This document shows, one piece after another, positions 1-56,424 of a stretch of 64,000 bases of DNA. Under the pieces are notes generated by a model that did no database searches, had not been told where the DNA came from, and was given only the letters and a program-made list of their open reading frames with translations. This stretch comes from Acidobacteria bacterium RIFCSPLOWO2_12_FULL_65_11 (GTDB lineage: Bacteria > Acidobacteriota > Vicinamibacteria > Vicinamibacterales > CAVVIG01), in NCBI GenBank assembly GCA_001767495.1, contig MELA01000141.1, forward strand, positions 933-64,932, given 5' to 3'. The first letter of the stretch is position 1, and the number at the start of each line of letters is the position of its first letter. The translations under genes were made by a program, and so were the position numbers.

Positions 1-266
1 CACAGCCCGACATACGACCCGCCACGCCGCATTCACCGCGACCTCACATCACGCCATGTCGATTCTAGCCCTTCCGCATCTGCCGAAAGACCTTGGCAGC
101 GGAGCAATCGCTGTACCGGCGAATTACCGGCGCGAAGGCGGAAAGCCGCGGAATTCTTCCCTCACTTCCGTAAATTTCCCGCGACTGCCGGCGCGACAGC
201 GTATGCGCTTCCATGAAGAGGTGCAGGCACGATGCTTGCGGCGTCTTGCTCTGGAGGGGGTAGGGT

Positions 267-6266: not shown

Positions 6267-7640
6267 TCAGGCCTGGGCCGGCCGCTCGAGCTTGAATTTC
6301 TCGACACGATACCGGATCTGATCGCGATTGAGGCCGAGAAGGCCGGCCGCCTTGGTCTGGTTCCATCCGCTGCGATCGAGCGCCTGCACCACGAGCGACC
6401 GCTCCAATTGCTCGAGGTCAACGCCGCTCGCGGGCAACTCGAAGCCCTCGCTGATGCGGGCATGGCCGCCGCCGAGCAGGAACTGATCGACGCCGAGAAC
6501 TGGCTCCTCGTCGCTCAGCAGCATCGCTCGCTCGATGGCGTTCCGCAGCTCGCGCACGTTACCTGGCCACGTGTAGGCCTGAAGCCGGGCCATCGCATCG
6601 GGGGCGACGCCACGGACGCGCTTCTTGAACTCGCGATTGAAGATGTCGATGTAGTAGTTGACCAGCAGCGGCACATCATCAGCCTTGGCCCGCAAGGGCG
6701 GCAGCGCAATCGGCAGGACGTTCAGGCGATAGTACAAATCCTCCCGAAACTTCCCCTGGCGTACTTCGTCCTCGAGACGCTTGTTGGTGGCGGCAATCAC
6801 CCGGACGTCGACGTGGATGTCGGTGGACGCGCCCACACGCTTGAAGGTCTTCTCTTCGAGAAACCGCAGCAGCTTCGCCTGGAGCAATGGCATCATCTCG
6901 CCAATCTCGTCCAGAAACACCGTGCCGCCGTCGGCCGATTCGAGGAGTCCCCGCTTCTGGCGATCCGCGCCGGTGAACGCTCCGCGCTCGTGCCCGAACA
7001 GCTCGCTCTCGAGCAGCTGCTCGGGCAAGGCTGAACACGTGATGTTCATGAACGGCTTGCTCGCCCGGTCGCTCGCGTAGTGGATGATCTTCGCGGCCAG
7101 ATCCTTCCCGGTGCCGCTCTCTCCGGTCAGGAGCACGGTTGACGCGGGGCTCGCCGCCACCTTCTGCAGGAGCGCTCGCACCTCGACCATCGCCAGGCTG
7201 TCGCCGATCAGGCGATCGAGGCTGAACGGCTGGGCCTGCGTGGCCCGCAACGTGCGCACCTCGCGACGCAGCCGCGTCGTTTCGAGCGCCTTCTCGACGA
7301 GCAGAACGATCTCGTCGATATTGAACGGCTTGTTGAGGTAGTGATAGGCACCCTGCTTCATCGCCTCGACGGCGGTCTCCACGCTCACATGGGCAGTGAG
7401 CAGAATGACCAGCGTGTCGGGGTCGTGCTCCTTGATTTTCTTGAGGACCGCCAGGCCGTCCGCATCGGGCAGCCGGTAATCGAGCAGGACGAGGTCGACG
7501 CCCTCCCGCATCCGATCGAGCGCTGCGGCGGCCGTATCGGCCTCGAGGACGTAGTACCCCTCCTCGCCCAGACGCGTGGTCAAGGACCAGCGAATGAGCG
7601 GTTCGTCGTCAACGACAAGGATGGTCGGCGCAGACATCAA
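6267..7640 (-). CDS. sigma-54-dependent response regulator (NtrC family: REC + AAA+ + Fis-type HTH)
   Basis: Receiver [16 protein letters not shown], Walker [15 protein letters not shown] sigma-54 contact loop, C-terminal [23 protein letters not shown]. Confidence 0.95.
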
Positions 7641-7654
7641 CGGTAGTATATGCA

Positions 7655-7711
7655 GGAAGTCTCAAGTCTGAAGTCTCAAGTCTGCCAGACTTCACACCTC
7701 AGACTTGAGAC
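7655..7711. repeat. heptad-periodic palindromic intergenic element, copy 2
   Basis: GAAGTCT CAAGTCT GAAGTCT CAAGTCT followed by CAGACTT..CAGACTTGAGAC. Homologous to 1803-1868 and also ends in TTGATT. Confidence 0.8.
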
Positions 7712-7724: not shown

Positions 7725-8117
7725 CTAATGCGGGCGGGCGGCGTGGGCCTGGAGGACGAGCGCGGCCATCTCGTGCATTTCGAAGGGCTTGGGCACGACA
7801 CGATAGGCGCCCAGATTCAAGGCGCTGGTCATGACTTCCGGTGTCCCGAAGGCCGTCATCATGATGATCTGACTGAACGGCGCGAGGCGCCGCAGCGTCG
7901 ACAGCAAGGTCAGATCGTTTGAATCCGGCAGACGATAGTCGAGCACGATGACATCCACGAGTTCCTTGCCCTCAGAGAGAGTGCGAATAGCCGTTTCGCC
8001 ATCGCACGCCTCAATCACGGTATGACCAGAGGCCGAGAGCGTCTCGGCCAGCGACCACCGAATGAGCGGCTCGTCGTCAATGACGAGGACGTGTAACGAT
8101 GGGGATTTTTTCGCCAT
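7725..8117 (-). CDS. stand-alone response-regulator receiver protein
   Basis: [34 protein letters not shown] receiver motifs with no output domain. Start set to ATG 8117 (MAKKSP), because upstream ORF codons are REP-encoded. Confidence 0.85.
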   Translation of the reverse strand: MAKKSPSLHVLVIDDEPLIRWSLAETLSASGHTVIEACDGETAIRTLSEGKELVDVIVLDYRLPDSNDLTLLSTLRRLAPFSQIIMMTAFGTPEVMTSALNLGAYRVVPKPFEMHEMAALVLQAHAARPH

Positions 8118-8250
8118 GTGGGAATTTTTCGGCGGGCCTACTGGCTCGGCCGCTCCTCCCTTCGCGCCCGTCCGACCGGTGGTCCGTATAACCTCTCCAC
8201 TCACACTGCAAGGGCACTTCAAGAGTCGGGCCAACGTTTTTTTCGACCTG

Positions 8251-8311
8251 TGGTGTCCGCCTTCAGGCGGACCGTGGCTCGCGGGGGTCCGGCTGAAACC
8301 GGACACTACAG
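8251..8311. repeat. REP-like hairpin dimer (Q forward + P reverse)
   Basis: GTGTCCGCCTTCAGGCGGAC ... GTCCGGCTGAAACCGGACACTAC. The terminal CTA (8306-8308) is the kinase stop codon (TAG on the minus strand). Confidence 0.9.
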
Positions 8312-9772
8312 AGAAGTGCGAAGAGGCAGGCGCACGGTAATTGTGGTACCTCCGCCAACCGGGCAATCGACCGTGATCGTCCCTCCGTGCGCCTCGACGA
8401 ACTGCTTCGTCGTCGGCAGGCCGAGCCCGGTGCCTTTCGACTTGGTCGTGAAGAACGGCGTGAAAATTTTCTCCCGCACGTCGGGAGGAATCCCCGGACC
8501 GGAATCGACAATGACGATCTCGCAGCTGTTCTCAATCGAGGTCACAGATGTGCCGATCACACCCTTGCCGCGCATCGCCTGGGCGCTGTTGAGCAGCAGG
8601 TTCTCAAAGACGACGCCCAACAGACTGGCATCGGCCATGACGGGAGGGACAGCGCCCGAGATCTCCACGCGCAGATCCTTGAACGACGCGTCCTTCCGGA
8701 GCAGATCGGCGGTCGTCTCGAGCAGGGACACCACATCGAGTGGCGTCGGCTTGGGCTGAGGCGGCCGCGCGAACAGCAGCAGATCCCTCATCAGGTCGTT
8801 CAATCCATCGACGCGCCGGATGACTTCCTCCATCACCGCCTTATCCCGGCTGCCTGCTGGCAACCGGCCGGCGATCACTTGAACGGCGCCTCGCACGGCG
8901 GCGAGCGGATTCTTCACCTCGTGGGCGAGGACGGCCGCCATTTCGCCGAGCCTGGCGAGCCCCGCCTGCTCACGAAGCTGTTCTTCCAACTGCACCCGAG
9001 ACGTCAGGTCGTGGATGATCCCCGAAAACTTGCGCTCGCCGCCGACGGTCATCTCGCCGACCGACAGATGGATGGGGAAGGTCGTTCCGTCCTTGCGGCG
9101 GCCGAACACCGCGCGGCCGATGCCGATGATCTTTCGTACGCCCGTCGCCAGGTACCGCTCGATGTATCGGTCGTGTTCCTCGCGATATGGCGACGGCATC
9201 AGGATGTTCACGCGCTGGCCCAACACCTCCTCTTCCGTGTATCCGAACAATCGTTGAGCCGCCGGATTGAAGGCTTCGACCCGGCCGCGCGCATCGATCA
9301 GGACGATGCCATCGACGGCGGACTCGACGACAGCCCGCCAGCGGGCTTCGCTGTCGCGCAGTTGCTCCTCTAGCTGGACCCGAGTGGTGAGATCGTGAAT
9401 GATCCCCGTGAACTTGCGCTCGCCGCCGACCGACATCTCGCCGACGGAGAGATGGATGGGGAACGTGCGACCGTCCTTGCGACGGGCGATGACCTCCCGA
9501 CCGAGGCCGATGATCCTGGGCACGCCCGTGGTCAGGTATCGCTCGATGTACCCGTCGTGCTCGTCGTGATACGGCGCCGGCATCAGCATGCTGACGTTAC
9601 GGCCCATCACGTCGGCCGCGGCGTAACCGAACAAGCGCTCCGCGGCCGGATTGAAGGCTTCGATGCGACCGCGAGCATCGATGACGACAATGCCGTCGAC
9701 GGCGGATTCTACGATGGCCGCCAGAACGCGAGCCGCGTTCTCTCCCAGCTTGAGATTCGTGGGGTCTGACAT
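8306..9772 (-). CDS. cytoplasmic PAS-PAS sensor histidine kinase
   Basis: Two near-duplicate PAS modules (VESAVDGIV.IDARGR.EAFNPAA.RLFGY). HisKA H-box LAHEVKNPL. HATPase motifs DSGPGIP and GTGLGL. Confidence 0.92.
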   Translation of the reverse strand: MSDPTNLKLGENAARVLAAIVESAVDGIVVIDARGRIEAFNPAAERLFGYAAADVMGRNVSMLMPAPYHDEHDGYIERYLTTGVPRIIGLGREVIARRKDGRTFPIHLSVGEMSVGGERKFTGIIHDLTTRVQLEEQLRDSEARWRAVVESAVDGIVLIDARGRVEAFNPAAQRLFGYTEEEVLGQRVNILMPSPYREEHDRYIERYLATGVRKIIGIGRAVFGRRKDGTTFPIHLSVGEMTVGGERKFSGIIHDLTSRVQLEEQLREQAGLARLGEMAAVLAHEVKNPLAAVRGAVQVIAGRLPAGSRDKAVMEEVIRRVDGLNDLMRDLLLFARPPQPKPTPLDVVSLLETTADLLRKDASFKDLRVEISGAVPPVMADASLLGVVFENLLLNSAQAMRGKGVIGTSVTSIENSCEIVIVDSGPGIPPDVREKIFTPFFTTKSKGTGLGLPTTKQFVEAHGGTITVDCPVGGGTTITVRLPLRTSL

Positions 9773-9873
9773 CTCCGAGGAGGCGCCTCCGAGCGCTCGC
9801 CGACGAGCTTATCTCAGCTCGTAGCCCTGCGACGCGGGCTTTCGCGATTATTTCGGCCTGCCGACGGTCGCCG

Positions 9874-9889
9874 TGGCACGGAGTGTGCT
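9874..9889 (+). promoter_or_regulatory. candidate sigma-54 promoter (-24/-12)
   Basis: TGGCACGGAGTGTGCT versus consensus TGGCACG-N4-TTGCW. GG-N10-GC spacing is exact, with one mismatch (G for T at -14). Divergent from the kinase operon. Confidence 0.45.
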
Positions 9890-11780: not shown

Positions 11781-13625
11781 TTAACTCTCGAAGTCGGGCC
11801 CTCTTGACGGCCGCGTCATGCGCAGGGCGTTGAGAACGGCAAACAGATCGATCGCCTCTTGAAACACCGCTCCGGCCACAGGTGAGAGCAGGCCGAAGGC
11901 GGCCAACATCATTCCGGCCCCGCTCAGCGCCATGCCGCCAATCGCGCTTTGCAGCGCCACGCGCCGGAGACGAAGACTGAGGTGGATGAGCTCATCGACC
12001 TTCGACAACGAGCTGTCGATGATGACCACGCGCGCGGCTTCAGTGGTCACGTCGCTGTGCAAGCCGAACGCGATCCCCACGGTGGCCGCCATCAAGGCCG
12101 GCGCGTCGTTGATGCCGTCACCCACGAACAGCGTCCCCGCCCGCTCGGTTTCCCTGCGGACGATCGCGACTTTCTCCTCCGGCGACGTTCCGGCGTGGAT
12201 CTGAGCAATCGCCATCAGGTCGGCCAGCCGCCTGACCTCCGCCTCGCGATCGCCGGAGACGACGAGCACGCGGGTAAACCCGTGTTTTGGTCCCAGGTGA
12301 TCGACAAATCCCCGACTGTCCGGCCGGGGCAGGTCATGGAACCTGAAAATCGCCGCATAGCGATCGTCGATGATGACGACGCACTCGAGGCCCGTCGGCT
12401 GGCTCGGTGGCAACTCGAACCGGTTGACCGCATTCGACCGGTTGGTGATTAAGACGGAGAAATCGCCCACCTTCCCGCGCAAGCCCACCCCGGGTTCCTC
12501 GCGAATCCACGCCACGTCCGGCAACGGGTATCGAGCATCAGCGGCCGCCTGGGCGATGGCGGCGGCGAGCGGATGACGGCTGTACTGCTCCATCGCCGCC
12601 ACGACCGGGAGGACGGTATCTCGGGTGAACGGCGGCGCGTACAGCTCGTCGCTCAGGCTCGGACGGCCCAAGGTCAGCGTCCCTGTCTTGTCGAAAATCA
12701 TCGTGTGACAGCGCCCCAGCTGCTCGAGGGCAGCCGGGTCTTTCACGATGACGCTCCGCCGCGCGGCCGTGGAAATGGCGCCGATGATGGCGACCGGAAT
12801 GGCAATGAGCAGCGGACACGGCGTCGCCACCACGACGACGCTCAGGAACCGAGTGGGGCTTCCAGACCACCACCACGCGCCCGCCGCCAGTCCAAGGGCC
12901 ACCGGCGTGTACCAGGCGCCAAGCTGGTCGCCGATTCGACGGAGCTTCGGACGTCGCTCGTCGGCCTCCTGCATGACCTGCATGATGCGCGCATAGCGGC
13001 TGTCGGCAGCGATGCGAGTGGCGCGAATCGCAAGCGACGTCTCGCCATTGACGGCACCAGAGAGGACCGAGGCGCCCGGTCCCTTGGAGATCGTGAACGG
13101 CTCGCCCGTCAGGTACGACTCGTCCATCGTCCCGTGGCCTTGAATCACTTCGCCGTCCACCGGGCAGATTTCATGAGGGAGGACAGAGAGCTCTTCGCCG
13201 ACCGCGATCTCGGCAACCGGCACATCCTCGAACCCGCTCCCGCGCCGGCGATGCGCGAGCGTGGGGACGCGGCGCGCCAGCGCGCGCAATACCGAGGTGG
13301 CCTCGGCGACCGCATAGCTCTCGAGCGTCTCCCCGCCGGCCAGCATCAGCACCACGATCGCGCCCGCGAGGTACTCGTCGAGCACAACGGAAGCCACGAT
13401 CGAGATCCCAGCGAGGTGATCGGAGCCAAACTGACCGTGCGCGCCCCGCCAGGCCAGGCGCAACACCAGAGGGAGACCTCCGCCGGCCAGCACGATGAGC
13501 AGCGGCAGATTCGCGGCTTGACCGAGCGAGCCGCCTGAGACGAGGTACCGCAGAGTGAGGTAAACAAGGATGCCGGCGAGGCTCAGGAGGGCAATCAGCG
13601 CGTTGGTGTCCCTCCAGAACCTCAT
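11781..13625 (-). CDS. P1B-type heavy-metal P-type ATPase with TPCP transmembrane motif (P1B-5-like), no N-terminal metal-binding domain
   Basis: [17 protein letters not shown] and TGEP motifs. TM motif VATPCPLLIAIP. Start set to ATG 13625 (MRFWRD). Confidence 0.88.
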   Translation of the reverse strand: MRFWRDTNALIALLSLAGILVYLTLRYLVSGGSLGQAANLPLLIVLAGGGLPLVLRLAWRGAHGQFGSDHLAGISIVASVVLDEYLAGAIVVLMLAGGETLESYAVAEATSVLRALARRVPTLAHRRRGSGFEDVPVAEIAVGEELSVLPHEICPVDGEVIQGHGTMDESYLTGEPFTISKGPGASVLSGAVNGETSLAIRATRIAADSRYARIMQVMQEADERRPKLRRIGDQLGAWYTPVALGLAAGAWWWSGSPTRFLSVVVVATPCPLLIAIPVAIIGAISTAARRSVIVKDPAALEQLGRCHTMIFDKTGTLTLGRPSLSDELYAPPFTRDTVLPVVAAMEQYSRHPLAAAIAQAAADARYPLPDVAWIREEPGVGLRGKVGDFSVLITNRSNAVNRFELPPSQPTGLECVVIIDDRYAAIFRFHDLPRPDSRGFVDHLGPKHGFTRVLVVSGDREAEVRRLADLMAIAQIHAGTSPEEKVAIVRRETERAGTLFVGDGINDAPALMAATVGIAFGLHSDVTTEAARVVIIDSSLSKVDELIHLSLRLRRVALQSAIGGMALSGAGMMLAAFGLLSPVAGAVFQEAIDLFAVLNALRMTRPSRGPDFES

Positions 13626-13846
13626 CGGCAGGGAGCTTAACACTGGTCGTCGAGAACACCGGCAGAGACCGCCGCCGGCGCGACATCGGTGGGGGTTCTG
13701 GGAGATTGGTCGAGAGTGGGCGGCTTCAGACAGGAAGTTTTTCCGGACGTGTGGGAAAAACCTCCGCTTCATAACCACTGGGCCGGCTAATTGCCGGCGG
13801 GTCAAGTGTTTTCGGCCTGATCTTCGCCATCACGGCCAGCCGATGC

Positions 13847-13862
13847 TGGCATCGTCGTTGCC
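13847..13862 (+). promoter_or_regulatory. candidate sigma-54 promoter (-24/-12)
   Basis: TGGCATCGTCGTTGCC matches TGGCAY-N5-TTGC with exact spacing. Lies 80 nt upstream of ORF 13942. A 12-bp inverted repeat (13733-13765) sits about 100 bp upstream. Confidence 0.55.
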
Positions 13863-13876
13863 CTGTAATCCAACCA

Positions 13877-13929
13877 AATGTAGTGTCCGGCTTCAACACT
13901 AAATGTAGTGTCCGGCTTGAGCCGGACCT
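13877..13929 (+). repeat. REP-like unit P with partial tandem duplication
   Basis: AAATGTAGTGTCCGGCTTCA / ACACT / AAATGTAGTGTCCGGCTTGAGCCGGACC. Confidence 0.85.
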
Positions 13930-13941
13930 GGTGGACAAGTC

Positions 13942-14349
13942 ATGACATCAGCCACGCTCGACACACCGGCGGCCATCCACAATCTCTCGCAGATGAACGG
14001 CCCGATGATTCGCCTCCTCAGGACCGAGTCTCTTGGGGGGAATGCCGGCCGGGTGAAGTTGGGCGGCCGGTACTATTCGTGCGCGGCGGCCCACGGTTAC
14101 GCCGATCCACGGTCTGGCCGGATCGTGGCATTCGGCAACGTCCAAGATGTCCCGCCAGAAATTAGAAAAGGGAACGCGGAATTCATCTTGAAAGTCGCCT
14201 TCGGTGGACTCCGCTTTTTCAGGATCGTCCAACTCTTCGCCAACGACGGACCGGACGGCAGACAGCTGTCTCTCGACGCGCGAGAAGTCCTTGAGGAATC
14301 TGTACAGAGATGGAACGAGGCACCCGAGAGAGGAACGACACCATGTTGA
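13942..14349 (+). CDS. hypothetical protein (strand assignment tentative)
   Basis: Lower-GC patch. The plus frame has higher third-position GC than the antisense ORF 13948-14361, and its TGA overlaps the next gene's ATG. No family recognised. Confidence 0.35.
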   Translation: MTSATLDTPAAIHNLSQMNGPMIRLLRTESLGGNAGRVKLGGRYYSCAAAHGYADPRSGRIVAFGNVQDVPPEIRKGNAEFILKVAFGGLRFFRIVQLFANDGPDGRQLSLDAREVLEESVQRWNEAPERGTTPC

Positions 14350-14879
14350 AAGAGAATTCACACAATGCCTGGGTCCATAAGGTCACGCTGGCGGTGACGA
14401 TGTTGATCGCGGCCGGTTTCGCACTGACGCAGACGAGCGCGGCAGTCCAGCAACAAACGCCGCCACAGCCGAACGCGGCGCGAGGCCAGGCGATAGGCCC
14501 GGCCGCGGGTCAGATGATGGTGAACGAGGGCCAGGCCAGCGCGATGATGGCCGAGCGCCAGCAGATGATGGCCAACATGAAGGCCATGGACAAGAAGCTG
14601 GATGACCTCGTCGCGAAAATGACTGCGGCGCGCGGGACCGACAAGGTTGACGCCATCGCCGCCGTCGTCAAAGAGATCGTGGCGCAGCGGACTCAGATGG
14701 GCGACCAGATGACATTGATGGATGGCCGCATGATGGGACACATGATGGAGCACATGATGTCGATGCAGGGCGGCATGATGTCGATGATGGGGACCAGCGG
14801 TCAGGCAGGCACCACTCAGTCAATGGCGAACTGTCCGATGATGAAGGCTCTCGATCAGGAGGGCTCCGGGGCAAAGTAA
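14343..14879 (+). CDS. Met/His-rich periplasmic protein, putative Cu(I)/Ag(I)-binding
   Basis: Signal/anchor VTLAVTMLIAAGFALTQTSAA. Dense Met clusters MMGHMMEHMMSMQGGMMSMMG and MMAERQQMMANM. The metal role is inference. Confidence 0.7.
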   Translation: MLKENSHNAWVHKVTLAVTMLIAAGFALTQTSAAVQQQTPPQPNAARGQAIGPAAGQMMVNEGQASAMMAERQQMMANMKAMDKKLDDLVAKMTAARGTDKVDAIAAVVKEIVAQRTQMGDQMTLMDGRMMGHMMEHMMSMQGGMMSMMGTSGQAGTTQSMANCPMMKALDQEGSGAK

Positions 14880-14893
14880 TGGGGCGGTGTGAC

Positions 14894-15665
14894 ATGTTCG
14901 AGCTGATTGCTGAGACCACCGAACGACCGCTTCGGGAACGCTCACCCATCTCGAAGTTCGCCGCTCTCGGGCTGCACGTGGCTGTCGTCGCCGGCCTCGC
15001 GGGCGTTGCCACGCTGCAGGGCGTCAAGGTGTTGTCTTCGGTGCCCCCGATGACGGCCTTCGTTGTTCCGTCGCCCGTTCCACTGCTCATGCCACCGCCA
15101 CCGCCGGTGACGCGTCAGGCTCCACGCAAGGTCGAGCAATCCTCAAGGCGTGCCGCAGAATCGGCAGCGCCAGTTGAACTGCCCACCCCGGGCTCGGCCC
15201 GCGCCTGACGCCGGCCATGCCGACGCGGTCGCGGGTCTGGCGGGTGTCACGGGTGTCACAGGTGTCGAAGGCGGCGTTGAAGGCGGCATCTTAGGTGGAG
15301 CGATTAGCGACGTCGTTGGTGGCCTCGTCTCGGAGCCTGCGCCGCCGCCGCCGACCCGGGAGGCGCCCGTCCGAATCGGTGGTCAGATTCAGGCGCCGTC
15401 ACTCATACACCGTGTCGAGCCTGTCTATCCTGTCATTGCTTCAGTCGGGCAACTGACCGGGCTGGTCATTCTCGAAGCGGTTGTGGACGAGACAGGTCGG
15501 GTCGAGTCGGTCACGGTCTTGCGATCGCGTCATCCACTGCTCGATAACGCCGCCAGTGACGCGTTGAAGCAATGGCGCTACAAGCCGCTCGTGCTGAACC
15601 GTACGCCGACGATAGGAAACATTGCACTAACCCGCTTCGCGGGAGGCGGTAGCCCGACGTTCTGA
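14894..15665 (+). pseudogene. tonB: TonB-family energy transducer, apparent frameshift between N-terminal anchor/Pro-rich part and C-terminal domain
   Basis: Frame 1 (to 15208) has MFELIAET..TM..PPPPPVT. Frame 2 (from at or before 15150) has GVEGGVEGGILGG plus the TonB C-terminal domain (VEPVYP..DNAASDALKQWRYKP). Confidence 0.6.
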
Positions 15666-15774: not shown

Positions 15775-16656
15775 ATGACCCCACTTCGGCAGCGCATGCT
15801 CGAGGACATGGAGGTGCGGAATCTCTCCCCGCACACGCAACGGGCCTACATCGAGAATGTCGCCCGGTTCGCTCGTCACTTCGATCGGTCCCCCGTCGAA
15901 TTGGGCCCCGAGGAGATTCGCGCCTATCAGGTGTACTTGGTCCGCGAACGACAACTGGCCCCCAGTTCGCTCGGCATTGCGGTCTGCGCCCTGCGCTTCC
16001 TCTATAAAGTCACCCTCAAGCAGCCGTGGGCCTTCGACGACCTGATTCCCGCCCCGAACAAGCCGCGGCGCTTGCCGGTCGTCCTCAGCCCCGACGAAGT
16101 CGCCCGCTTTCTGGCGTGCGTCACGCACCCCGAGCACCGCGCCATCCTGACGACGTGCTACGCGGCGGGCTTGCGCGTGTCAGAGGTGGTCCACCTGCGA
16201 CCCACGGATGTCGACAGCCGCCGGATGGTGATCCGCGTCGAGCAAGGGAAAGGCCAGCGCGATCGCTACGTCATGCTCTCCCCGACGCTCCTCGAACTGT
16301 TGCGCGAGTGGTGGCGCGCCCACCGGCCGACCGCGTGGCTGTTTCCCGGCCAGCATCCTGACCAGCCGATCACGAGTCACGCCGTCCGCGAGGCGTGTCA
16401 GCGCGTGCATCGTCGATCGCGTCTCACCAAACCGGTCACTCCGCACGCGCTCCGCCATGCGTTCGCGGTCCATCTCCTCGAAGCCGGGACCGACGTGCGC
16501 ACGATTCAACGGCTCCTGGGCCATCGCAGTCTGGAGACCACCGCCCGCTATCTGCGGATCGCCACGACGCAGGTCTGTGCGACCGCGAGTCCACTCGACC
16601 TGCTCCCACGGCCGGTGCCGCTCTCGTCGACGTCCACCACGCCGCCCACCTGCTGA
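15775..16656 (+). CDS. tyrosine recombinase / phage-integrase-family protein associated with IS91-type element
   Basis: N-terminal SAM-like core-binding domain. Catalytic ..GLRVSE..HALRHAFAVHLLEAGTDVRTIQRLLGHRSLETTARYLRI. Confidence 0.9.
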   Translation: MTPLRQRMLEDMEVRNLSPHTQRAYIENVARFARHFDRSPVELGPEEIRAYQVYLVRERQLAPSSLGIAVCALRFLYKVTLKQPWAFDDLIPAPNKPRRLPVVLSPDEVARFLACVTHPEHRAILTTCYAAGLRVSEVVHLRPTDVDSRRMVIRVEQGKGQRDRYVMLSPTLLELLREWWRAHRPTAWLFPGQHPDQPITSHAVREACQRVHRRSRLTKPVTPHALRHAFAVHLLEAGTDVRTIQRLLGHRSLETTARYLRIATTQVCATASPLDLLPRPVPLSSTSTTPPTC

Positions 16657-16665
16657 CGCGCGCTC

Positions 16666-17877
16666 GTGGATCGTCCGACGCTGGAGGTGGCGGACATCTT
16701 CCGTCGCTACGGCGACACCTATCGGGACGCGGCCGGTTCCTCACTCTCGACCGCTCAGCGGCGGGTGATGACCGCGATCGAGACATGCCGCACCGCCGCC
16801 CTCGGCGGGCACGTCGAGCAGTGCGACACGTGTGGCCACCAGCGCATCGCCTACAACTCGTGTCGGAATCGCCACTGTCCGAAAGGCCAATCGCTTGCTC
16901 GCGCCGCGTGGATCGAGCCGCGCACGGCCGAAGTGCTCGAGTGCGCATACGTTCACGTCGTCTTCACGATCCCTGCGTCGATCGCCGCCATTGCGCTCCC
17001 GAACAAAGCGGTCGTGTACCGGATCCTCTTTCGCGCGACGGCCGAGACCCTCCGGACCATTGCGGCTGACCCCCGGCATCTCGGCGCACAAATCGGGTTC
17101 TTCGCTGTGCTTCATACGTGGGGCCAGACGCTGGTCCATCATCCGCATCTGCACTGCGTCGTGCCGGGCGGCGGTCTCTCGTCCGATGGCACCCGCTGGA
17201 TCGCCTGTCGCCCGGGGTTCTTGCTGCCCGCCCGGGTGCTGTCACGCCTCTTCCGCCGGGTATTCCTGCAACAACTTCAGGCGGCGTTCACGGTCGGCCC
17301 GCTCACCCTGACGGGCTCGCTTCAGGCGCTCCGCGATCCGGACGCCTGGGCGCGCTATCTGGCACCGGTGCGGCAGACCGAGTGGGTCATCTACGCCAAG
17401 CGGCCTTTTGCCGGCCCGTCACCGGTCCTCGACTATGTCGGTCGGTACACGCATCGGGTCGCCATCTCGAACGATCGGATCCGGGAGATCGACGACGATG
17501 ACGTCCGCTTTACCGATAAGGACTACCGGGCGAGTCCCGCGCAGTCCGTGAAACCGATCACGCTTGCCGCCACCGAATTCATTCGCCGCTTTCTGTTACA
17601 CGTGCTGCCTTGGGGCTTTCACCGGATTCGGTATGACGGCTTCCTCGGTCCTCGCCATCGGGCCGAGAAGCTCTCACGCTGCCGCCAGCGTTTGGCGTCC
17701 ACCCCGACGCCCGCCACCTCGCCGGCCACCGTGACCGCCGCCGCTGACCCGCCGCGCCTTGCTGTCCGGGCACGCGTCTCGATGCGCCTATGCCCGGCCT
17801 GTGGGCGAGGTCACCTGATCGTGCTCGACCAACTGCCGCCCACCGCCCGTCCCTCGCTCATCCCGGATACGTCGTGA
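16666..17877 (+). CDS. IS91-family (Y2 HUH, rolling-circle) transposase
   Basis: N-terminal Zn-binding CDTCGH..CRNRHCPKG. HUH region LHTWGQTLVHHPHLHCVV. Tyr motif YVGRYTHRVAISNDRI. C-terminal CPACG. Confidence 0.9.
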   Translation: MDRPTLEVADIFRRYGDTYRDAAGSSLSTAQRRVMTAIETCRTAALGGHVEQCDTCGHQRIAYNSCRNRHCPKGQSLARAAWIEPRTAEVLECAYVHVVFTIPASIAAIALPNKAVVYRILFRATAETLRTIAADPRHLGAQIGFFAVLHTWGQTLVHHPHLHCVVPGGGLSSDGTRWIACRPGFLLPARVLSRLFRRVFLQQLQAAFTVGPLTLTGSLQALRDPDAWARYLAPVRQTEWVIYAKRPFAGPSPVLDYVGRYTHRVAISNDRIREIDDDDVRFTDKDYRASPAQSVKPITLAATEFIRRFLLHVLPWGFHRIRYDGFLGPRHRAEKLSRCRQRLASTPTPATSPATVTAAADPPRLAVRARVSMRLCPACGRGHLIVLDQLPPTARPSLIPDTS

Positions 17878-18410
17878 CATCCCCCATCCTCACTCACGGG
17901 CGTGCGTCACACGCGCCACTGCCGCGTCACGCATCTCGTGTGTCTCGATCAGGACTCGCCGTGCGTGCCACCGCCACCCCACACGATCCGATTGCGTCGC
18001 GGCGCACTTCTGCGCCCCTCCTCTCCACATCGCCCTCTGGCTCCCACGTCTCTGCTCGATGTCCAGTCCTTCGCCGAGGTCCCACGTCATTCAATGCCCA
18101 TAGCCGACGCATCCGGCTAGCGGTTTCGTCCCATCCGTTTTTCAGTCACCGGCGCGGCGAGCGCACACCTCTCCACCTCCCAACGCTCTCGCGCCGCGCC
18201 GCCGACCGAAAAACGCTCTGGATTAGGACCGTCTGGGAGTTAGCATAACGCCCGTTCTCAGATCCGCTCCCCCTCCGACAGCGCGGATTGGCTGTCCCTG
18301 AAGCGCCGATTGTGAGACTCCCGCGAGGGATCGTCAAGCACCAGAAGCCTCGTGTGAGGCGTGGCGGCGCCCACGGGCACACCTCCGGCGCGCTGACGCG
18401 TCCGCCATCG

Positions 18411-19502
18411 TCAGGAGCACGGGTCGAACATCGGGGTCTCGTCGCCTACAAGGTCGGCATCCCGCGCGGTGAGCGGCGGCGCGCGGGCAGGACGCGGCGC
18501 GGGAATCTCGGCGGGCAGATCCAGATGATGCAGGATCCGCTCGATCACCGCCGCCTGCTCGATGAGCGCCACCAGGCGCAGCCGGCCGCCGCACCGCGGG
18601 CAGGCCAGCACGTCGAACCCGAACGTCCGGCTCATCAAGTCGGCCCACAGCCGGTTGTGCCCAGGGCCCCGAGCCGCCGTCGGCGTGTCGCGCGGACCGT
18701 GTGGCGTCGGACGAGACGCGATCGCCCCGGCGTCACGACCTGTCGCGGTCGTGTGCGTGACGACCGCCGACCGCCACGCCGCCCGCGGCGCCAGGACGCC
18801 GTGATAGAGAATCAGATTGATCCGCGGCCGCGGCACAAGCACCGCCAGGCGTCCCAGAAAGTCGAGCGGATCCCCCTCCAGGTGCGTCGTGCCATCCGCC
18901 CACCGATGCCGGAGCTGAAGCCGCACGCGCCCGTCGACCGTCACGCTGAGCCGTTCTCGCGCCACGGGCGGACGCAACGCATAGCGACACACCGCCTCGA
19001 GCCGCGCCCGCTGCCCGGCCGGCACCGGCGCTTCGGCCGCCCAGGCGTCCTCCTCGCTGGCCTCGTCGCGATCCCCGAGCCCGCGCCGATCGAGCACGCG
19101 CCTGATCCCCGGCTCTACCGTGGCCAGCACCTCCGCCACATCCAGATCCGTGAGGCGAGGCGCCGGGTGAAACGCCAGAGCACCCGCTTCGTCCCTCGCG
19201 AAGACGCCGTCCACCACGAGCGCGTGGATGTGCACGTTGAGATTGAGCGCGCCCCCGAACCGCTGGACGATCGCGACCGCGCCCCCGCGGCCGTCCTGCA
19301 CGCCGTCCCATCGCGCGCGGCCGCGCAGCCAGCCGCACCGCAGAAAGGATCGGAACTCCTGCTCGACAAATCGCGGCAGCCCGTCCCCGTCGCGCAGACT
19401 CGCGGCCTGCACGCGGAAGGTCTCGAACTGCTCCCGCACGACCTGGTACAGCACGCTCCCGGCAGGACTCCGCGGTTCGTAGCGGACCGATGGCAGCGCC
19501 AC
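18411..19502 (-). pseudogene. second, divergent IS91-family transposase with internal deletion of the Zn-binding segment
   Basis: Retains FLRCG, NLNVHIHALVVDGV (HUH), CRYALRPPVARERL and C-terminal ACPRCGG..ILHHLDLP. The sequence jumps from FLRCGWLRG directly to AVAIVQRFG. Confidence 0.6.
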
Positions 19503-19658
19503 GCGCCGCGCTGTGGCGAGCGGCGTGCCAACGAGTGACGGCCGGAATCGCTGGACTTCCGGACGATCGGGTCCGCGAAGGTGGCAGTTTCTGCGTACGC
19601 GAACATGGTGGCGTCGGCAGATTCTCTGGCGACAACGCTGGAGCCGTCGTACGGGACA

Positions 19659-22013
19659 ATGATGAGGATGGCTTCAAAGGACCCTGTGTGTGGGATGAGC
19701 GTCAGGCCGGACAGTCCCCACCGGCTCGAGTACGCGGGCGATACCTATCTTTTCTGCTGCGCCGGGTGTCTGGCGAAATTCCGCGACAACCCGACACGGT
19801 ACTTGGAAACGGTTTCGCACCACGTGGGGGCCGGCTTCAGCCGGACCGAAGTCCGCCTGAAGGCGGACGCCACGATAGCTTCGAAACTCTCTGCCGGGAT
19901 GACCTACACATGCCCGATGCACCCCGAGATCGTCCGCAGCGCCCCCGGCCCATGTCCCCTCTGCGGGATGGCGCTCGAGCCCCGCACGGTGACAAGTGCA
20001 GCCGAGGAGCAGAATCCCGAGCTGCGGGACATGACGCGCCGCCTCTGGATCGCGACAGCCCTTACGGCACCGCTCCTGATCTCGGTGATGAGCGACATGC
20101 TGCCGGGAGCCGGGACGCTCTTTTCGATGTCCATGAGGACGCAGATGCTCCTCGACCTCGCTCTGGCCACACCGGTGTGCATCTGGGCCGCATGGCCCTT
20201 TTATGAACGTGCCGTGTCGTCGGTCGTCCACCGCAGCCTGAACATGTTCACGCTCATCGGGCTCGGCGTCAGCGTCGCGTACGTCTACAGCCTCGTCGCG
20301 ACCCTCTTTCCGGAGATCTTTCCGGATTCCTTCCGCGCGGAAGGCGAGGTTGCCGTCTACTTCGAGGCCGCCGCCGTCATCACGACGCTCATCCTCCTTG
20401 GCCAAGTGCTCGAGCTGCGCGCGAGAAGCCACACGAGCGCTGCGATCAGAGAGTTGCTAGGCCTGGCGCCGAAGACGGCGCGGCGGCTTCGCGAGGACGG
20501 ACTCGACGAGGACGTTCCGCTCGAGACGGTGCAGGTCGGCGACCGGTTGCGCGTGCGACCGGGCGAGAAGGTGCCGGTCGATGGCGTCGTCCTCGACGGA
20601 CACAGCCATGTGGACGAGTCGATGATCACCGGCGAGCCCATGCCCGTGGAGAAACAGTCGGGGGACCGCGTGGTCGGCGCGACGATGAACGGCACCGGCG
20701 GCCTGGTGATACGCGCGGAGAAGGTCGGGGCCGAGACGCTCCTGGCGCGCATCGTCGCCATGGTGGCCGAGGCACAGCGCAGCCGGGCACCGATTCAGAA
20801 GCTCGCGGACGTCGTCTCGGGCTACTTCGTGCCAATCGTCATCCTGACCGCCGTCGTCACGTTCGTCGTGTGGGGACTCGTCGGACCGGAGCCTCGAATG
20901 GCGCATGCGCTCATCAATGCCGTCGCGGTGCTCATCATCGCCTGCCCATGTGCGCTCGGACTGGCCACGCCGATGTCGATCATGGTGGCGACGGGCAAGG
21001 GCGCGACGATGGGTGTGCTCTTCAGGAACGCGGAGGCCATCGAGATCCTGCGCAAGGTGGACACGCTGGTGGTCGACAAGACGGGCACGCTCACCGAGGG
21101 CAAACCGAAGCTGGTGAGCGTCACGCCGGCCCCGGGCGTCAAAGAAGATGAACTACTTCGCCTGGCGGCCAGCCTCGAGCGAGGGAGCGAGCACCCACTC
21201 GCGGCCGCCATCGTCAGAGGCGCCGAGGCCAGAGGCCTCGAGCTGGCCGACGCCGAGCGATTCGAGTCGATCACTGGAAAGGGCGTGAAGGGACGCGTCG
21301 AGGGCCATGATGTGGCGCTCGGAAACAAGGCGTTGCTCGAAAGTCTCGGCATCGAGGCGCGACCGCTCGTGGAGCGCGCCGAAGAACTCCGGGCGGATGG
21401 GCAGACAGTCATGTTCGTCGCGATTGACCGCAGCGCGGCAGGCCTTCTGGGCGTGGCCGATCCCATCAAGGAGAGCACGCCCGACGCGATTGCGGCATTG
21501 CACAAAGACGGCGTCCGCCTGGTGATGCTGACGGGCGACAGCCAGACGACGGCCCAGGCGGTCGCCCGGAAGCTTGGCATAGACGAAGTGATGGCCGAGG
21601 TGCTGCCGGATCAGAAGGCCGACAAGGTCAAGCGCCTCCAAGCCGAGGGCCGGGTCGTCGCGATGGCGGGCGACGGCATCAACGATGCGCCGGCGCTCGC
21701 CCAGGCACACGTGGGCATTGCGATGGGCACCGGCACGGATGTCGCGATGGAAAGCGCGGGCGTGACGCTCGTGAAGGGCGACCTTCGTGGCATCGCACGG
21801 GCGCGCGGCCTCTCGCGACAGACGATGCGCAACATCAAGCAGAATCTGTTTTTCGCGTTCGTTTACAACACGGCGGGTGTGCCCATCGCCGCCGGTGTGC
21901 TCTATCCGGCGTTCGGCCTCCTTCTGAGCCCCATCATCGCTGCGGCCGCCATGAGCTTCAGCTCGTTGTCGGTGGTCGCCAACGCCCTCCGTCTTCGTCG
22001 AGCGGGCGTTTAG
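19659..22013 (+). CDS. copA: copper-translocating P1B-1 P-type ATPase with N-terminal TRASH/YHS and YTCPMHPE metal-binding modules
   Basis: [18 protein letters not shown] (TRASH), [21 protein letters not shown] motif ([13 protein letters not shown]), [17 protein letters not shown]. Start ATG 19659 is tentative. Confidence 0.92.
19829..19868 (+). repeat. REP-like P/Q hairpin dimer inside the copA reading frame
   Basis: GGCCGGCTTCAGCCGGACC GAA GTCCGCCTGAAGGCGGAC translated in frame as [14 protein letters not shown]. Confidence 0.85.
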
Positions 22014-23280: not shown

Positions 23281-24504
23281 ATGTCCAGTCGCTGTGTATG
23301 GGCGGTGGGTGTGGCGGCGTTTGTCTGCGGTGGGACCGCTGCAAGCGGCCAGTCCACGCTGACCTATCAACAGGCTCTCACGATGGCGCGAGAACGCGCG
23401 CCGAGGGTCGCGATTGCCAGAGCGCGCATTGACGAAGCGCGAGGTCGAATTGTCGGCGCGCGGATGAGGTTTCGCGACAACCCGGTCCTCGATGTCTCTG
23501 CAGGCCCGCGGACACTGGAAAGCGAGACGGTGACCGACTTCGAGCTCGGTATCAATCAGATTGTCGAGCTCGGCAATCGTCGGACGGCTCGCATCGACGC
23601 GGCTGAAGCCTCGGTCGTGCGCGAAGCCGCGACATCGGACGCCACCATTCGCCAACTCATCCGTGATGTCGCGGTCAGCTTCGTCCGCGGGCAGCAGGCC
23701 CAGGCGCGGCTCGATGTCCTGCGTGCTGCGGAGTCGGTGGCGAAAGACGCCTTGGATGCAGCTGACCGCCGCTATCGGGCCGGCGACGTCGCCGTGCTTG
23801 ACGTCAACGTCGCCCGGGCCTCGGTGGCCCGCGCCACTGCACACGTGCGGGTCGCGGACGCAGACCGCGCAGCGGCGGTCGGTGAGCTGAAAGCACTGCT
23901 GGCGTGGACGGAGGGCGCGGATCCAGCGGTCGAAGGCGACCTGCGCGATCGCATTCGGGACGGACTCGCCGTGCAACTCCTGCCAGCCAACGAGCGGCCG
24001 GAAGTCAGGATGCTCCTGGCGGAAGCGGCGGAAGCGCAGGCTGACGTCAGGCTCGGACAAGGACTCAAGAAACCCGATCTGGGGTTTGGGCTGCGGTTCG
24101 AGCGTGAAGAAGGACATCGAGCTGCCGCCGCGGGTTTTTCAATCGGGCTTCCGCTCTTCAGCAAGGGCCAGGAGCAGATGGCGACCGGTCTGGCGCGGGC
24201 CAGCCGAGCGGAGCTGGAACGCGGCGTGGTCGTCACGGAGCTGGAGCTTCGAGCTCGGTCGGCACAGACGGTCTTTCAGATGCGTCTGGCCGCCGCCGAG
24301 CCACTCCAACGCGACGTCTTACCGGGTCTTGAGGAGAACGAGCGTCTGGCCCGACGCAGTTTTGAGGTAGGCGAACTGAGTCTGCCCGATCTACTCGTCA
24401 TTCGTCGTGAATTCGTCGACACGCGCCTGCAACTCGTGGATGCGCTCGCAGACGCCGCAATCGCGTCGATCGACCTGCAGGCCGCAGCGGGGGTACTCCG
24501 ATGA
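23281..24504 (+). CDS. TolC-family outer-membrane efflux protein (CzcC/CusC-like), operon 1
   Basis: AAGGAG RBS, signal peptide and two OEP repeats. ATGA overlap with the downstream adaptor. Confidence 0.85.
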   Translation: MSSRCVWAVGVAAFVCGGTAASGQSTLTYQQALTMARERAPRVAIARARIDEARGRIVGARMRFRDNPVLDVSAGPRTLESETVTDFELGINQIVELGNRRTARIDAAEASVVREAATSDATIRQLIRDVAVSFVRGQQAQARLDVLRAAESVAKDALDAADRRYRAGDVAVLDVNVARASVARATAHVRVADADRAAAVGELKALLAWTEGADPAVEGDLRDRIRDGLAVQLLPANERPEVRMLLAEAAEAQADVRLGQGLKKPDLGFGLRFEREEGHRAAAAGFSIGLPLFSKGQEQMATGLARASRAELERGVVVTELELRARSAQTVFQMRLAAAEPLQRDVLPGLEENERLARRSFEVGELSLPDLLVIRREFVDTRLQLVDALADAAIASIDLQAAAGVLR

Positions 24505-25694
24505 CAACACGACTCGCGGTTCACGTACTGCTGCTCCCGGCCGCACTGAGCGTCTGGGGCTGTCGATCCGACTCGCCCTCGGCCGAGCCGGGCCGTTCAG
24601 CGGCGGCCGCCGAAACGGCCGAGACGGCCAAGACAGCAAATCCTCTGTCGCTGCAGATCGACCGAGAAATGCTGCGGGATCTGCGGATCACCACGACGAA
24701 GACAGAGGTCCGGCCGGCCGGTGAAGCGATCAGTGTTCTGGGCGAGTTGCGTGTGGACGAGAGGCGTTATGCCGAAGTGGGCTCGCCCATCACCGCCCGA
24801 GCCGTCCGACTGCTCGCCTCCCTTGGTGACACCGTTATCGCAGGGCAAGCGCTTGTCGAGCTTCAGAGCGGCGACCTTGCCAAAGCTCGCGCCGATTTCG
24901 CGGTGGCGGCAAGTCGCGTCGAGCTCACGCGCCGCGTGCTGGTCAGAAGGCGTGATTTGGCCGCGGAACGAATTACGCCGGAACGCGAAGTTGAGGAGGC
25001 TGAATCGCAATTGTCGGTTGCCGAGGCTGAGCTGCGCTCAGCTCGCGCCGCGTTGCAGGCGCTCGGTGTCGCCGCCGACGAGCCGTCCGACGAGCCATCG
25101 CACTTCACACTGCGGACACCCATTGCAGGAACCGTCATCGAACGATCGCTCGCGATCGGCCAGATGGTCGATCCCGCCAAGCCGCTGTTCGAAATCGCCG
25201 ACTTGTCCCGATTGTGGCTGATCGTCCACGCCTTCGAGCGGGACGCCGTGCGGGTGAAGGTCGGCGCCGCTGCGCGCGTCACCCTACCGGCGATGCCCGG
25301 CCGCACGTTCGGCGGCACCGTCACGCTCGTCGGAAGCCGCGTGGACGCCGATTCTCGAACCGTTCCTGTCAGGCTCGAATTGGCGAACCCCGGTCAGACA
25401 TTGCGGCCCGGCATGTCAGCCACTGCGGCCATCCTGCTCTCGGAGACCGCGGGCAGAATTCTGACCGTGCCGGTCGCCGCCTTGCAGCGGGTGCAGGACC
25501 AGTGGGTGGTGTTCATCCCGCAGTCCGAAGGCGTGTTCGACATCCGGGCGGTCGGGCGTGGACGCGATCTGAACGGCGAGGTCGAGATTCTGACGGGCTT
25601 GCGGCCCGACGATACCGTCGTCGTCGACGGAGCGTTCCTCCTCAAGGCTGAAGCCGACAAAGCTCGCGGTGCCGGCGAACACGAGACGCACTGA
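24501..25694 (+). CDS. efflux RND periplasmic adaptor (HlyD/CzcB family), operon 1
   Basis: Lipoyl/barrel-sandwich signature (LVELQSGDLAKA, RTPIAGTVIERS), coiled-coil hairpin, C-terminal beta-barrel. Confidence 0.88.
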   Translation: MTTRLAVHVLLLPAALSVWGCRSDSPSAEPGRSAAAAETAETAKTANPLSLQIDREMLRDLRITTTKTEVRPAGEAISVLGELRVDERRYAEVGSPITARAVRLLASLGDTVIAGQALVELQSGDLAKARADFAVAASRVELTRRVLVRRRDLAAERITPEREVEEAESQLSVAEAELRSARAALQALGVAADEPSDEPSHFTLRTPIAGTVIERSLAIGQMVDPAKPLFEIADLSRLWLIVHAFERDAVRVKVGAAARVTLPAMPGRTFGGTVTLVGSRVDADSRTVPVRLELANPGQTLRPGMSATAAILLSETAGRILTVPVAALQRVQDQWVVFIPQSEGVFDIRAVGRGRDLNGEVEILTGLRPDDTVVVDGAFLLKAEADKARGAGEHETH

Positions 25695-25699
25695 CGACC

Positions 25700-28771: not shown

Positions 28772-28782
28772 AGCCGCGAGTT

Positions 28783-28804
28783 GTGAGCTGGCCTCTCAGC
28801 TCAC
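28783..28804. terminator. hairpin between the convergent RND genes (candidate bidirectional terminator)
   Basis: GTGAGCTG-GCCTCT-CAGCTCAC is a perfect 8-bp stem overlapping the stop codon of the minus-strand RND gene. No U-tract. Confidence 0.4.
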
Positions 28805-31896: not shown

Positions 31897-31918
31897 ATAT
31901 CGCCCGTCTGTTCGGCCC

Positions 31919-32044
31919 AGAGGTCCGGCTGAAGCCGGACACTACAACGTTATAGAGGTCCGGCTGAAGCCGGACACTACAACGTTATAGATGCAGTGTC
32001 CGGCTTCAGCCGGACCGGATGTAGTGTCCGGCTTTAGCCGGACC
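31919..32044. repeat. array of four REP-like P units (2 direct 35-nt repeats, then 2 inverted copies) between adaptor and pump genes
   Basis: AGAGGTCCGGCTGAAGCCGGACACTACAACGTTAT x2 (31919-31953, 31954-31988). Then GTGTCCGGCTTCAGCCGGACC (31996-32016) and GTAGTGTCCGGCTTTAGCCGGACC (32021-32044). Confidence 0.92.
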
Positions 32045-32048
32045 GTGA

Positions 32049-34828: not shown

Positions 34829-34880
34829 AACACCTCGGAATGAACGTGAACGACGACAGACGACGGGTGAGCCCGTCAGA

Positions 34881-35267: not shown

Positions 35268-35277
35268 GACCTCCAGA

Positions 35278-38429
<3,152 letters not shown>

Positions 38430-38456
38430 GGTTCGTTTCTCGCGGGGACGAGCACG

Positions 38457-44799: not shown

Positions 44800-44814
44800 G
44801 ACACATCGGCACGG

Positions 44815-56271: not shown

Positions 56272-56396
56272 TGCGTGTGGATGAATAAGCAATTGTACTG
56301 CCATCTGTATCGGCTCGTAGTACCAAGCACTTAAGAGAATCACTCGCCGATGAGCATGGGAGTCCAACAACGGTGGGTGGCAGGAATGACACGGTG

Positions 56397-56424
56397 ACCA
56401 GTCGGCAGTCACCAGTCGGCAGTC
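56397..56424 (+). repeat. direct repeat ACCAGTCGGCAGTC x2
   Basis: Read directly. Same GTCGGCA core as the array at 57692-57730. Confidence 0.85.

Follow-up and report, generated by a model that had tools for sequence, protein, structure and literature searches.

A predicted sigma-54-type promoter with a putative upstream activator site in front of a Met-rich protein operon in a metal-resistance island of a Vicinamibacterales genome

A DNA stretch of 64,000 nt from Acidobacteria bacterium RIFCSPLOWO2_12_FULL_65_11 (assembly GCA_001767495.1, contig MELA01000141.1, positions 933 to 64,932 of the forward strand), referred to as the window in the following, contains at 13847–13862 an element which on comparative grounds is likely to be a sigma-54 (RpoN)-dependent promoter pointing rightward, towards an operon of two genes coding for a 135-aa protein and a Met-rich protein, and a disrupted tonB gene. 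An inverted repeat at 13733–13765 may well be the corresponding enhancer, i.e., a putative activator-binding site. A sigma-54 promoter with an upstream repeat had been proposed in a preliminary description of this DNA, and it is the best reading of the region, as a related locus (L012) has kept the –24 and –12 elements together with both arms of the repeat, and the layout recurs in a second lineage.

The promoter element, TGGCAT-CGTCG-TTGCC on the plus strand (GG at 13848–49, GC at 13860–61), was found where the preliminary description had placed it, and its sequence TGGCATCGTCGTTGCC shows exactly the GG-N10-GC spacing of –24/–12 promoters. The strict core TGGCAY-N5-TTGC has this one match in 64 kb, as compared to 0.1–0.2 expected. 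Intergenic positions no more than 200 nt 5' of a gene start account for 3.3% of the oriented window positions, and about 0.003 strict-core matches are expected at such positions in the correct orientation. The looser core TGGCA-N6-TTGC has two matches in the window, each located directly 5' of a gene start and in the correct orientation. The distance from the –12 GC to the ATG at 13942 is 81 nt, and the promoter is oriented properly for this first gene. Sigma-54 promoters initiate about 12 nt 3' of the –12 GC, a geometry that predicts a start at 13872–13874 on the plus strand. A consensus scan for –35/–10 pairs did not reveal a sigma-70 promoter in this region, and a terminator scan did not find a terminator-like site between the promoter and the first gene. 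Searching positions 13000–15000 against Rfam resulted only in a chance snoRNA match, without any known leader or riboswitch. By themselves, the motifs are suggestive, providing weak to moderate evidence for a sigma-54 promoter.

The inverted repeat GGAAGTTTTTCC-N9-GGAAAAACCTCC has a 12-9-12 layout with 11 of 12 positions complementary, as described before, and contains the conserved core AGTTTTTC-N11-GAAAAAC. Measured from its centre, the repeat precedes the –24 GG by 99 bp and thus is within the range of about 70–150 bp from the promoter that is characteristic of upstream activator sites, so that the earlier placement at enhancer distance holds. Inverted repeats of comparable quality form 15 clusters per 64 kb, as compared to 4–10 in random sequence; a second copy of the dyad was found nowhere in the window, including the surroundings of the sigma-54 activator gene at 6267–7640. 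One of six near-identical assemblies (L001) carries a natural A-to-C variant in the right arm (GGAAAACCCTCC), in its conserved A5 tract at the position equivalent to 13759 of the window. An integration host factor (IHF) site between repeat and promoter was also considered, but was dropped because inspection yielded only matches with three mismatches.

Promoter and repeat appear to be more than chance because they are conserved in related loci. The comparison loci, labelled L0xx, are few in number and mutually related; scans of two contig collections gave only six loci, the protein family of the first gene being rare. The nearest relatives of the locus are metagenome-assembled genomes of Vicinamibacteria/Vicinamibacterales, and five other assemblies contain near-identical contigs. 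Some loci are uninformative with respect to the promoter, either because the contigs end at the gene start (L018, L026, L027) or because the upstream sequences are unrelated (L025, L028, L013, L019, L021). In locus L012, which codes for a homolog of the 135-aa protein with 69% identity and has osmC, not an ATPase gene, as divergent neighbour, the intergenic region aligns poorly with that of the window except for two blocks. The first block comprises the repeat, GAGTTTTTC-GGCGTCGCTC-GGAAAAACC in L012 and AAGTTTTTC-CGGACGTGTG-GGAAAAACC in the window; the arms are identical while the spacer has diverged, leaving AGTTTTTC...GGAAAAACC as the conserved sequence. In the second block, CTGGCACCGATGTTGCCC is aligned with CTGGCATCGTCGTTGCCC, corresponding to CTGGCA(C/T)CG..GTTGCCC with identical –24 and –12 elements and a variable spacer. 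The L012 counterpart of the promoter, TGGCACCGATGTTGCC, has the consensus C where the –24 element of the window has a T. Identical arms and identical –24 and –12 elements combined with freely varying spacers are what one would expect of a site bound by a dimer and of a promoter of the sigma-54 type. In L018, the –12 sequence TTGCCC is retained in the truncated upstream region. On the opposite strand of L012, CGGCATCGTGTTTGCC faces osmC, and the repeat is thus located between two outward-facing elements.

A second lineage (L009/10/11, L022/23, and L007/08/17) carries an entirely different dyad, GGACTATCCCGC-N6-GCGGAATAGTCC, in the same place. Its leftward element, TGGCACATCG(A/C)TTGCC, is close to the consensus and faces osmC or mgtC plus an ATPase gene, and its rightward element, TGGC-N8-TGCA, is weaker and faces tonB or the 135-aa protein gene. 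The dyad and the two divergent GG-N10-GC elements flanking it are the main conserved blocks of the intergenic region in this lineage. The distance from the dyad centre to the –24 GG is 80 bp in L012, about 91 bp in the second lineage, and 99 bp in the window, i.e., it changes in steps close to one helical turn; the distance from the –12 GC to the start codon ranges from 13 to 81 nt across the elements. In every element, TGGCA is distal and TTGC is proximal to the gene served, which argues against a symmetric operator. The TGGC-N8-TGCA elements of L007 (4198–4228), L022 (1444–1474), and L009 (4973–5003) end 13 nt before an MFD... start. In L009 and L022, a tonB-like N-terminal MF(D/E) start is fused to the 135-aa protein gene, suggesting that tonB was deleted there.

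Several observations weigh against a sigma-54 promoter with an enhancer at this site. L012 is the only complete independent homolog with the same repeat and promoter, the upstream regions of L025, L028, and L013 are unrelated and do not contain the motif, and the rightward element of the second lineage, ending just 13 nt before the start codon, would give rise to an mRNA almost without a leader, an unusual situation. The promoter matches the extended consensus TGGCAC-N5-TTGCW at 9 of 11 core positions; it deviates by a T for C at –21, and by a C for A/T after the –12 GC. The equal-weight consensus score (YTGGCACGNNNNTTGCW) is 10/13 and does not exceed background, with 18 sites of ≥10/13 observed as compared to 19 in random sequence; the GC content of the window is 65%. 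This match count over 13 positions is a crude measure that does not discriminate in GC-rich sequence, and strict-core counts and position were used instead. The preliminary description had named a score no better than background as refuting the promoter; on this point, motif scoring speaks neither for nor against it. Moreover, the window harbors no rpoN gene, the repeat occurs singly whereas NtrC-type enhancers typically have two or more activator sites, and no activator gene is found adjacent to the promoter in the window, nor within about 5 kb in the related loci.

The background-level score and the missing adjacent activator gene would also fit a merely coincidental likeness to sigma-54 sites, in which the operon is read from an unrecognised sigma-70- or ECF-type promoter and the repeat is the operator of a conventional metal-responsive repressor or activator (ArsR/CsoR/MerR-like). 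Inverted repeats of such quality occur by chance about six times per 64 kb, and the repeat, located 108–140 nt upstream of the start of the divergent ATPase gene, could belong to that gene, possibly as its operator. Nevertheless, we consider such a coincidence improbable: it is exactly the –24/–12 blocks that L012 and four additional divergent elements have kept, the spacers being free to vary, and each element is oriented towards the gene served. The repeat is 58–99 bp away from these elements, which is the position of an activator site rather than that of an operator, and the consensus scan, as mentioned above, gave no sigma-70 –35/–10 pair. The repeat might also function mainly as an intrinsic DNA-bending element that replaces IHF in assisting the formation of a loop, with the true activator sites located elsewhere. 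Its conserved core indeed consists of T5 and A5 tracts which are two helical turns (21 bp) apart, and no convincing IHF consensus was seen by inspection between repeat and promoter. However, the G/C bases beside the tracts are conserved as well (AG-T5-C, GG-A5-CC), and the second lineage has a GC-rich dyad without A-tract in the same position. A protein-binding site fits these observations better, and a mainly bending role appears very improbable.

The comparison of loci suggests that, ancestrally, a bidirectional sigma-54 cassette was built around one upstream activator site shared by both directions. The leftward element of the window is degenerate (GGCAGAGAC--CGCCG, as compared to GGCAAACACGATGCCG), and osmC is absent. 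The promoter may be real by descent, but now a relic of this cassette, possibly weak or silent in a decaying locus. Such a state would be in line with the frameshifted tonB gene, which is truncated by an integrase/IS91 insertion, with the degenerate leftward partner promoter and the missing osmC, and with the approximately 52 nt of repetitive extragenic palindromic (REP) sequence that separate the promoter from the gene. In addition, the –24 element deviates by a T from the consensus C found in L012, and L001, as one of six near-identical assemblies, has the A-to-C variant of the conserved A5 tract mentioned above. On the other hand, the genes of the 135-aa and the Met-rich protein are intact and identical in six independent assemblies, the –24/–12 core and both repeat arms are intact, and the leader REP alone would not block transcription, as there is no T-run after its hairpin. 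We thus see only a slim chance that the promoter is a mere relic, and favor a functional sigma-54 promoter.

If so, transcription would proceed as follows. A dimeric enhancer-binding protein would bind the inverted repeat about 100 bp upstream of the promoter and, by DNA looping, reach the closed complex of the sigma-54 holoenzyme, which would be opened at the expense of ATP. Transcription would begin near 13873, and the resulting 69-nt leader would consist almost wholly of two tandem REP copies, so that the mRNA would open with a REP hairpin just before the ribosome-binding site. The predicted transcript spans the translationally coupled pair of genes for the 135-aa and the Met-rich protein, and then the tonB pseudogene. 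The module would represent the local version of a regulatory cassette common to Vicinamibacteria-like Acidobacteria. In the relatives, one central inverted repeat would serve two divergent sigma-54 promoters, one facing genes for the 135-aa protein, the Met-rich protein, TonB, DUF302 proteins, and CopA, and the other facing osmC or mgtC plus a P1B-ATPase gene; in the window, the leftward promoter appears to have decayed, with osmC gone.

The leader sequence had been described as one REP unit at 13877–13929. It is indeed a true REP with a GTAG head, a palindrome, and about 17 intergenic copies, but its start was one base off, and it comprises two copies. The first copy (13876–13904, plus strand) is truncated, with a GTAG head at 13880–83 and the 5' arm TGTCCGGCTT, but without a 3' arm; it contains a local 6-bp dyad, TAGTGT/ACACTA, at 13881–86 and 13896–901. 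The second copy (13905–13929, plus strand) is complete, with a GTAG head at 13905–08 and a hairpin GTCCGGC-TTGA-GCCGGAC at 13910–13927, which is present in both the minimum free energy and the centroid folds. At the sequence level, the leader repeat consists of two direct copies of AAATGTAGTGTCCGGCTT at 13876–13893 and 13901–18. The REP core GTAGTGTCCGGCTT, allowing ≤2 mismatches, has 20 matches in 64 kb, 17 of which are intergenic as compared to none expected. The full unit consists of GTAG followed by TGTCCGGCT-TCA-GCCGGAC(C), and there is a GTCCGCC/GGCGGAC variant; the GTAG tetranucleotide is found before TGTCCGGCTTCAGCCGGAC in almost every copy, also in those at 13880 and 13905. Inverted, REPIN-like pairs are found at 8250/8296, 23158/23199, 51909/51947, and 60704/60745, and a cluster of four copies is located at 31932–32034.

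GTAG-headed palindromes that are mostly extragenic and occur in inverted doublets or clusters are the defining features of RAYT-associated REPs, and REP, REPIN, and BIME sequences are reportedly recognised by RAYT (TnpA-REP) transposases. The family in the window likewise is a short imperfect palindrome with a GTAG head, many intergenic copies, and frequent inverted doublets and tandem arrays. In contrast to the known elements, the leader copies are arranged as a direct tandem, the first of them without a 3' arm, some copies are located in frame within copA, and no RAYT (Y1_Tnp) gene was found among the genes of the 64-kb window. The copies in copA form a REPIN-like inverted doublet, GGCCGGCTTCAGCCGGACC-GAA-GTCCGCCTGAAGGCGGAC, at 19826–19872, which encodes 14 residues of the linker that joins the YHS and HMBD domains. 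This doublet is kept in the copA gene of a different lineage (L007, 6170–6219), and looks like a REP doublet that became fixed inside a gene. A second family of palindromic repeats, GTCTGAAGTCT...AGACTTCAGAC, is represented by two intergenic sites at 1813–1853 and 7655–7711, the latter directly upstream of the sigma-54 activator gene.

A Shine-Dalgarno-like sequence, GGTGGA (13930–13935, plus strand), immediately follows the REP hairpin, with 6 nt between it and the ATG at 13942. In the predicted fold of 13872–13944 (z = –2.6), the orphan 5' arm UGUCCG of the REP pairs with UGGACA at the Shine-Dalgarno sequence; this pairing is lost when a longer stretch is folded. A stabilising 5' stem-loop in the leader is conceivable from these models and so, with low probability, is an occlusion of the Shine-Dalgarno sequence by the orphan arm, but the prediction is not robust. 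The REP hairpin is not a terminator, because it is not followed by a T-run. In L026, which codes for a protein with 77% identity, a REP 3' arm directly precedes the start codon; L012 has a degenerate hairpin in the same place, and in L018 (75% identity) about 20 nt separate the –12 element from the ATG, without any REP. Since the presence of the REP varies among relatives, it represents a lineage-variable insertion between promoter and gene rather than a conserved control region. The leader REP thus is real, but probably incidental to control.

The first gene of the operon (13942–14349, plus strand) codes for the 135-aa protein, a member of a rare uncharacterised family with the motif NESLGGNAGRV..YSCAAA.GYADP..G.IVAFGNVQD and without a signal peptide. 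Its G+C content at third codon positions is atypical (0.68, as compared to about 0.82 in neighbouring genes). It is nevertheless a real gene, because it has 15 homologs among 5.8 billion proteins, down to 48% identity and with strongly conserved motifs. These homologs support the plus-strand frame, and an open reading frame on the minus strand (13948–14361) was therefore ruled out as the gene. The 135-aa protein did not match any sequence profile of Pfam, NCBIfam, or the PDB, and a Foldseek search with its reasonably confident AlphaFold2 model (predicted local distance difference test score 79) gave no match below E = 0.1. Distant family members (45–48% identity; L013/L014/L015 and L021) are located on AT-rich contigs in unrelated contexts such as HicAB or an NYN domain; the family thus extends beyond Acidobacteria and beyond metal clusters. 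The second gene (14343–14879, plus strand), overlapping the first one by 7 nt, codes for an exported or membrane-anchored protein of 178 aa with a C-terminal Met/His-rich tract, MMGHMMEHMMSMQGGMMSMMG. It is located directly downstream of the 135-aa protein gene also in L012, L010, L024, and L026, with Met tracts of variable length, and searches of its product against Pfam, NCBIfam, and the PDB did not yield a match. Both genes are intact and identical in the six independent assemblies.

The third gene, tonB (14894–15665, plus strand), is disrupted. Its start at 14894 (MFEL..., as in the relatives) is backed by homology, but the N-terminal part (14894–15208) and the TonB_C part (15150–15665) are in different frames, with a frameshift near 15150–15190, and the native C-terminal end is replaced at the junction to the integrase/IS91 element; independent assemblies show the same split. 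The linkage of the open reading frame at 13942, the gene of the Met-rich protein at 14343, and tonB at 14894 was correctly given in the preliminary description, which had not, however, accounted for the frameshift and truncation of tonB in this partly decayed cluster. In the related loci, the 135-aa protein gene is accompanied by tonB and by genes of DUF302 proteins and a YHS-containing CopA, and a role of the operon in copper-type metal handling is a reasonable inference from this gene context. PcoE/SilE, CopM, CusF, and the tracts of CopB/PcoB are Met-rich periplasmic binders of Cu(I) or Ag(I). Like these, the predicted protein has a signal or anchor sequence followed by tracts of the MxxM/MMxHMM type, and its gene is located beside genes of copper ATPases and Cus-like RND systems; the likeness, however, is one of composition only, without detectable sequence or profile similarity. 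The Met-rich protein probably is periplasmic and binds Cu(I)/Ag(I).

The activator gene 6 kb away to which the preliminary description had pointed is present and intact. It codes for an NtrC/AtoC-type response regulator (6267–7640, minus strand) with REC, Sigma54_activat, and HTH_8 domains and with intact Walker A and GAFTGA motifs, and is the only sigma-54 activator gene found in the 64-kb window. Its operon comprises genes of a single-domain REC protein (7725–8126) and a soluble, FixL-like double-PAS kinase (8306–9772), and is adjoined by usp genes. The kinase opens directly with its PAS domains (residues 21–255), leaving no room for a periplasmic domain. The suggested link of this activator to the repeat did not find support, as there is no second copy of the dyad in the window, the partner kinase is soluble and FixL-like, and the relatives lack a nearby activator gene. 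The protein is a candidate only, and we doubt that it acts on the repeat at 13733–13765. TTTTTCG motifs near the start of the REC gene (GGGGATTTTTTCGCC, GGGAATTTTTCGGCG, and ACGTTTTTTTCGACC; 8091–8135 and 8239), one of them in coding sequence, resemble the left half-site of the dyad (GAGTTTTTCGGCG in L012) in direct orientation. They are a weak lead; an attempt to tie the repeat to the activator via these motifs (8107, 8125, 8239) was abandoned as too weak in view of their direct orientation.

ZraSR-zraP of Escherichia coli is a textbook case of sigma-54 control of a metal and envelope stress response, in which one intergenic region holds the sigma-54 promoter or promoters in a divergent arrangement, and an inverted repeat in its middle is occupied by the activating regulator of the NtrC family. 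The divergent layout around a central dyad in L012, L009, and L007 resembles this system. However, the divergent units of the E. coli system are zraP and zraSR, and the regulator is self-controlled, whereas the divergent units here are structural genes, and one promoter survives in the window. In Myxococcus xanthus, the curA copper cluster, YHS-CopA included, is activated by CorSR, and the promoters involved are putative sigma-54 promoters (PMC3707914). The cluster, controlled by an NtrC-type regulator, encodes periplasmic metal-binding proteins and has putative TGGCAC-N5-TTGCW promoters before several genes (PMC3707914). In M. xanthus, the kinase with its periplasmic sensor and the regulator are encoded within the cluster, and copper induction and dependence on CorSR were shown experimentally (PMC3707914). 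The present locus lacks the adjacent activator gene and the membrane kinase with a periplasmic sensor that are typical of CorSR and ZraSR; its nearest activator is encoded 6 kb off in an operon of its own and pairs with a FixL-like PAS kinase, and the genes served are those of the 135-aa protein, the Met-rich protein, and TonB. In view of both systems, the statement in the preliminary description that a sigma-54-controlled metal module would be unusual was overstated.

The neighbourhood of the operon is a metal-resistance island. The divergent gene (11781–13625, minus strand) codes for a P1B heavy-metal ATPase of 614 aa without an N-terminal metal-binding domain. In the relatives, the ATPase gene is located behind osmC or mgtC and a minus-strand sigma-54-like promoter, which is degenerate in the window. 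To the right, tonB is followed by a tyrosine integrase and IS91 (Y2 transposase) elements (15775–19502), the first of which extends from 15775 to 17877; a second, inverted Y2 transposase remnant at 18411–19502 is located just before the gene of the CopA protein with YHS and HMBD domains (19581–22013). Genes of several Cus/Czc-like HME-RND systems follow at 23281–41323. In L012, GH77 and aminotransferase genes are located directly after the cluster, whereas their counterparts in the window are at 43216–45996, indicating that about 28 kb of resistance genes and mobile DNA accumulated here.

Further sigma-54-like sites were observed in the window. The second match of the TGGCA-N6-TTGC core, ATGGCAGTACAATTGCT (56304–56288, minus strand), has its –12 GC 18 nt before the ATG of a VWFA gene (55324–56271, minus strand) whose product, with a signal peptide, belongs to the acidobacterial family TIGR03436, in keeping with the origin of the window; the distance of 18 nt implies a nearly leaderless transcript. 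About 100 nt upstream of this core, a tandem repeat of two TGACTGCCGACTGG copies (approximately 56396–56423) could be an activator site. The sequence CAGGCACGATGCTTGCG (224–240, plus strand), with GG-N10-GC spacing and a score of 11/13, precedes by 27 nt the ATG at 267 of a 156-aa open reading frame without Pfam match, and may be a third sigma-54 promoter, whose upstream region is truncated by the edge of the window. Another sigma-54-like site, GTGGCACGGAGTGTGCT (9873–9889, plus strand; 11/13, –12 GTGC), precedes the usp gene at 10246 by about 370 nt and is contained in a called minus-strand open reading frame of 119 aa without family match.

The understanding of sigma-54 or of REP elements is not changed by this locus, as sigma-54 control of metal genes and REPs in transcribed leaders are already known. 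Its promoter would be a standard sigma-54/enhancer promoter in mechanism, and a new example of known control. A more far-reaching idea, namely that in Vicinamibacteria-type Acidobacteria a portable bidirectional sigma-54 cassette, with a central dyad and two outward-facing –24/–12 promoters, governs an undescribed copper module of the 135-aa and Met-rich proteins, that lineages have swapped the activator site and with it the activator but retained the architecture, and that the REP leader, through the complementarity of its orphan 5' arm to the ribosome-binding region, acts as a cis-regulatory RNA switch, appears unlikely. If confirmed, the promoter and its repeat would be among the first promoter/enhancer pairs defined for uncultured Vicinamibacteria, by footprinting alone, and the dyad AGTTTTTC-N11-GAAAAAC would provide a sequence handle for the regulon and its activator. 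The rare pair of the 135-aa and the Met-rich protein would then be tied to copper ATPases and TonB, and would be a reasonable target for functional study.

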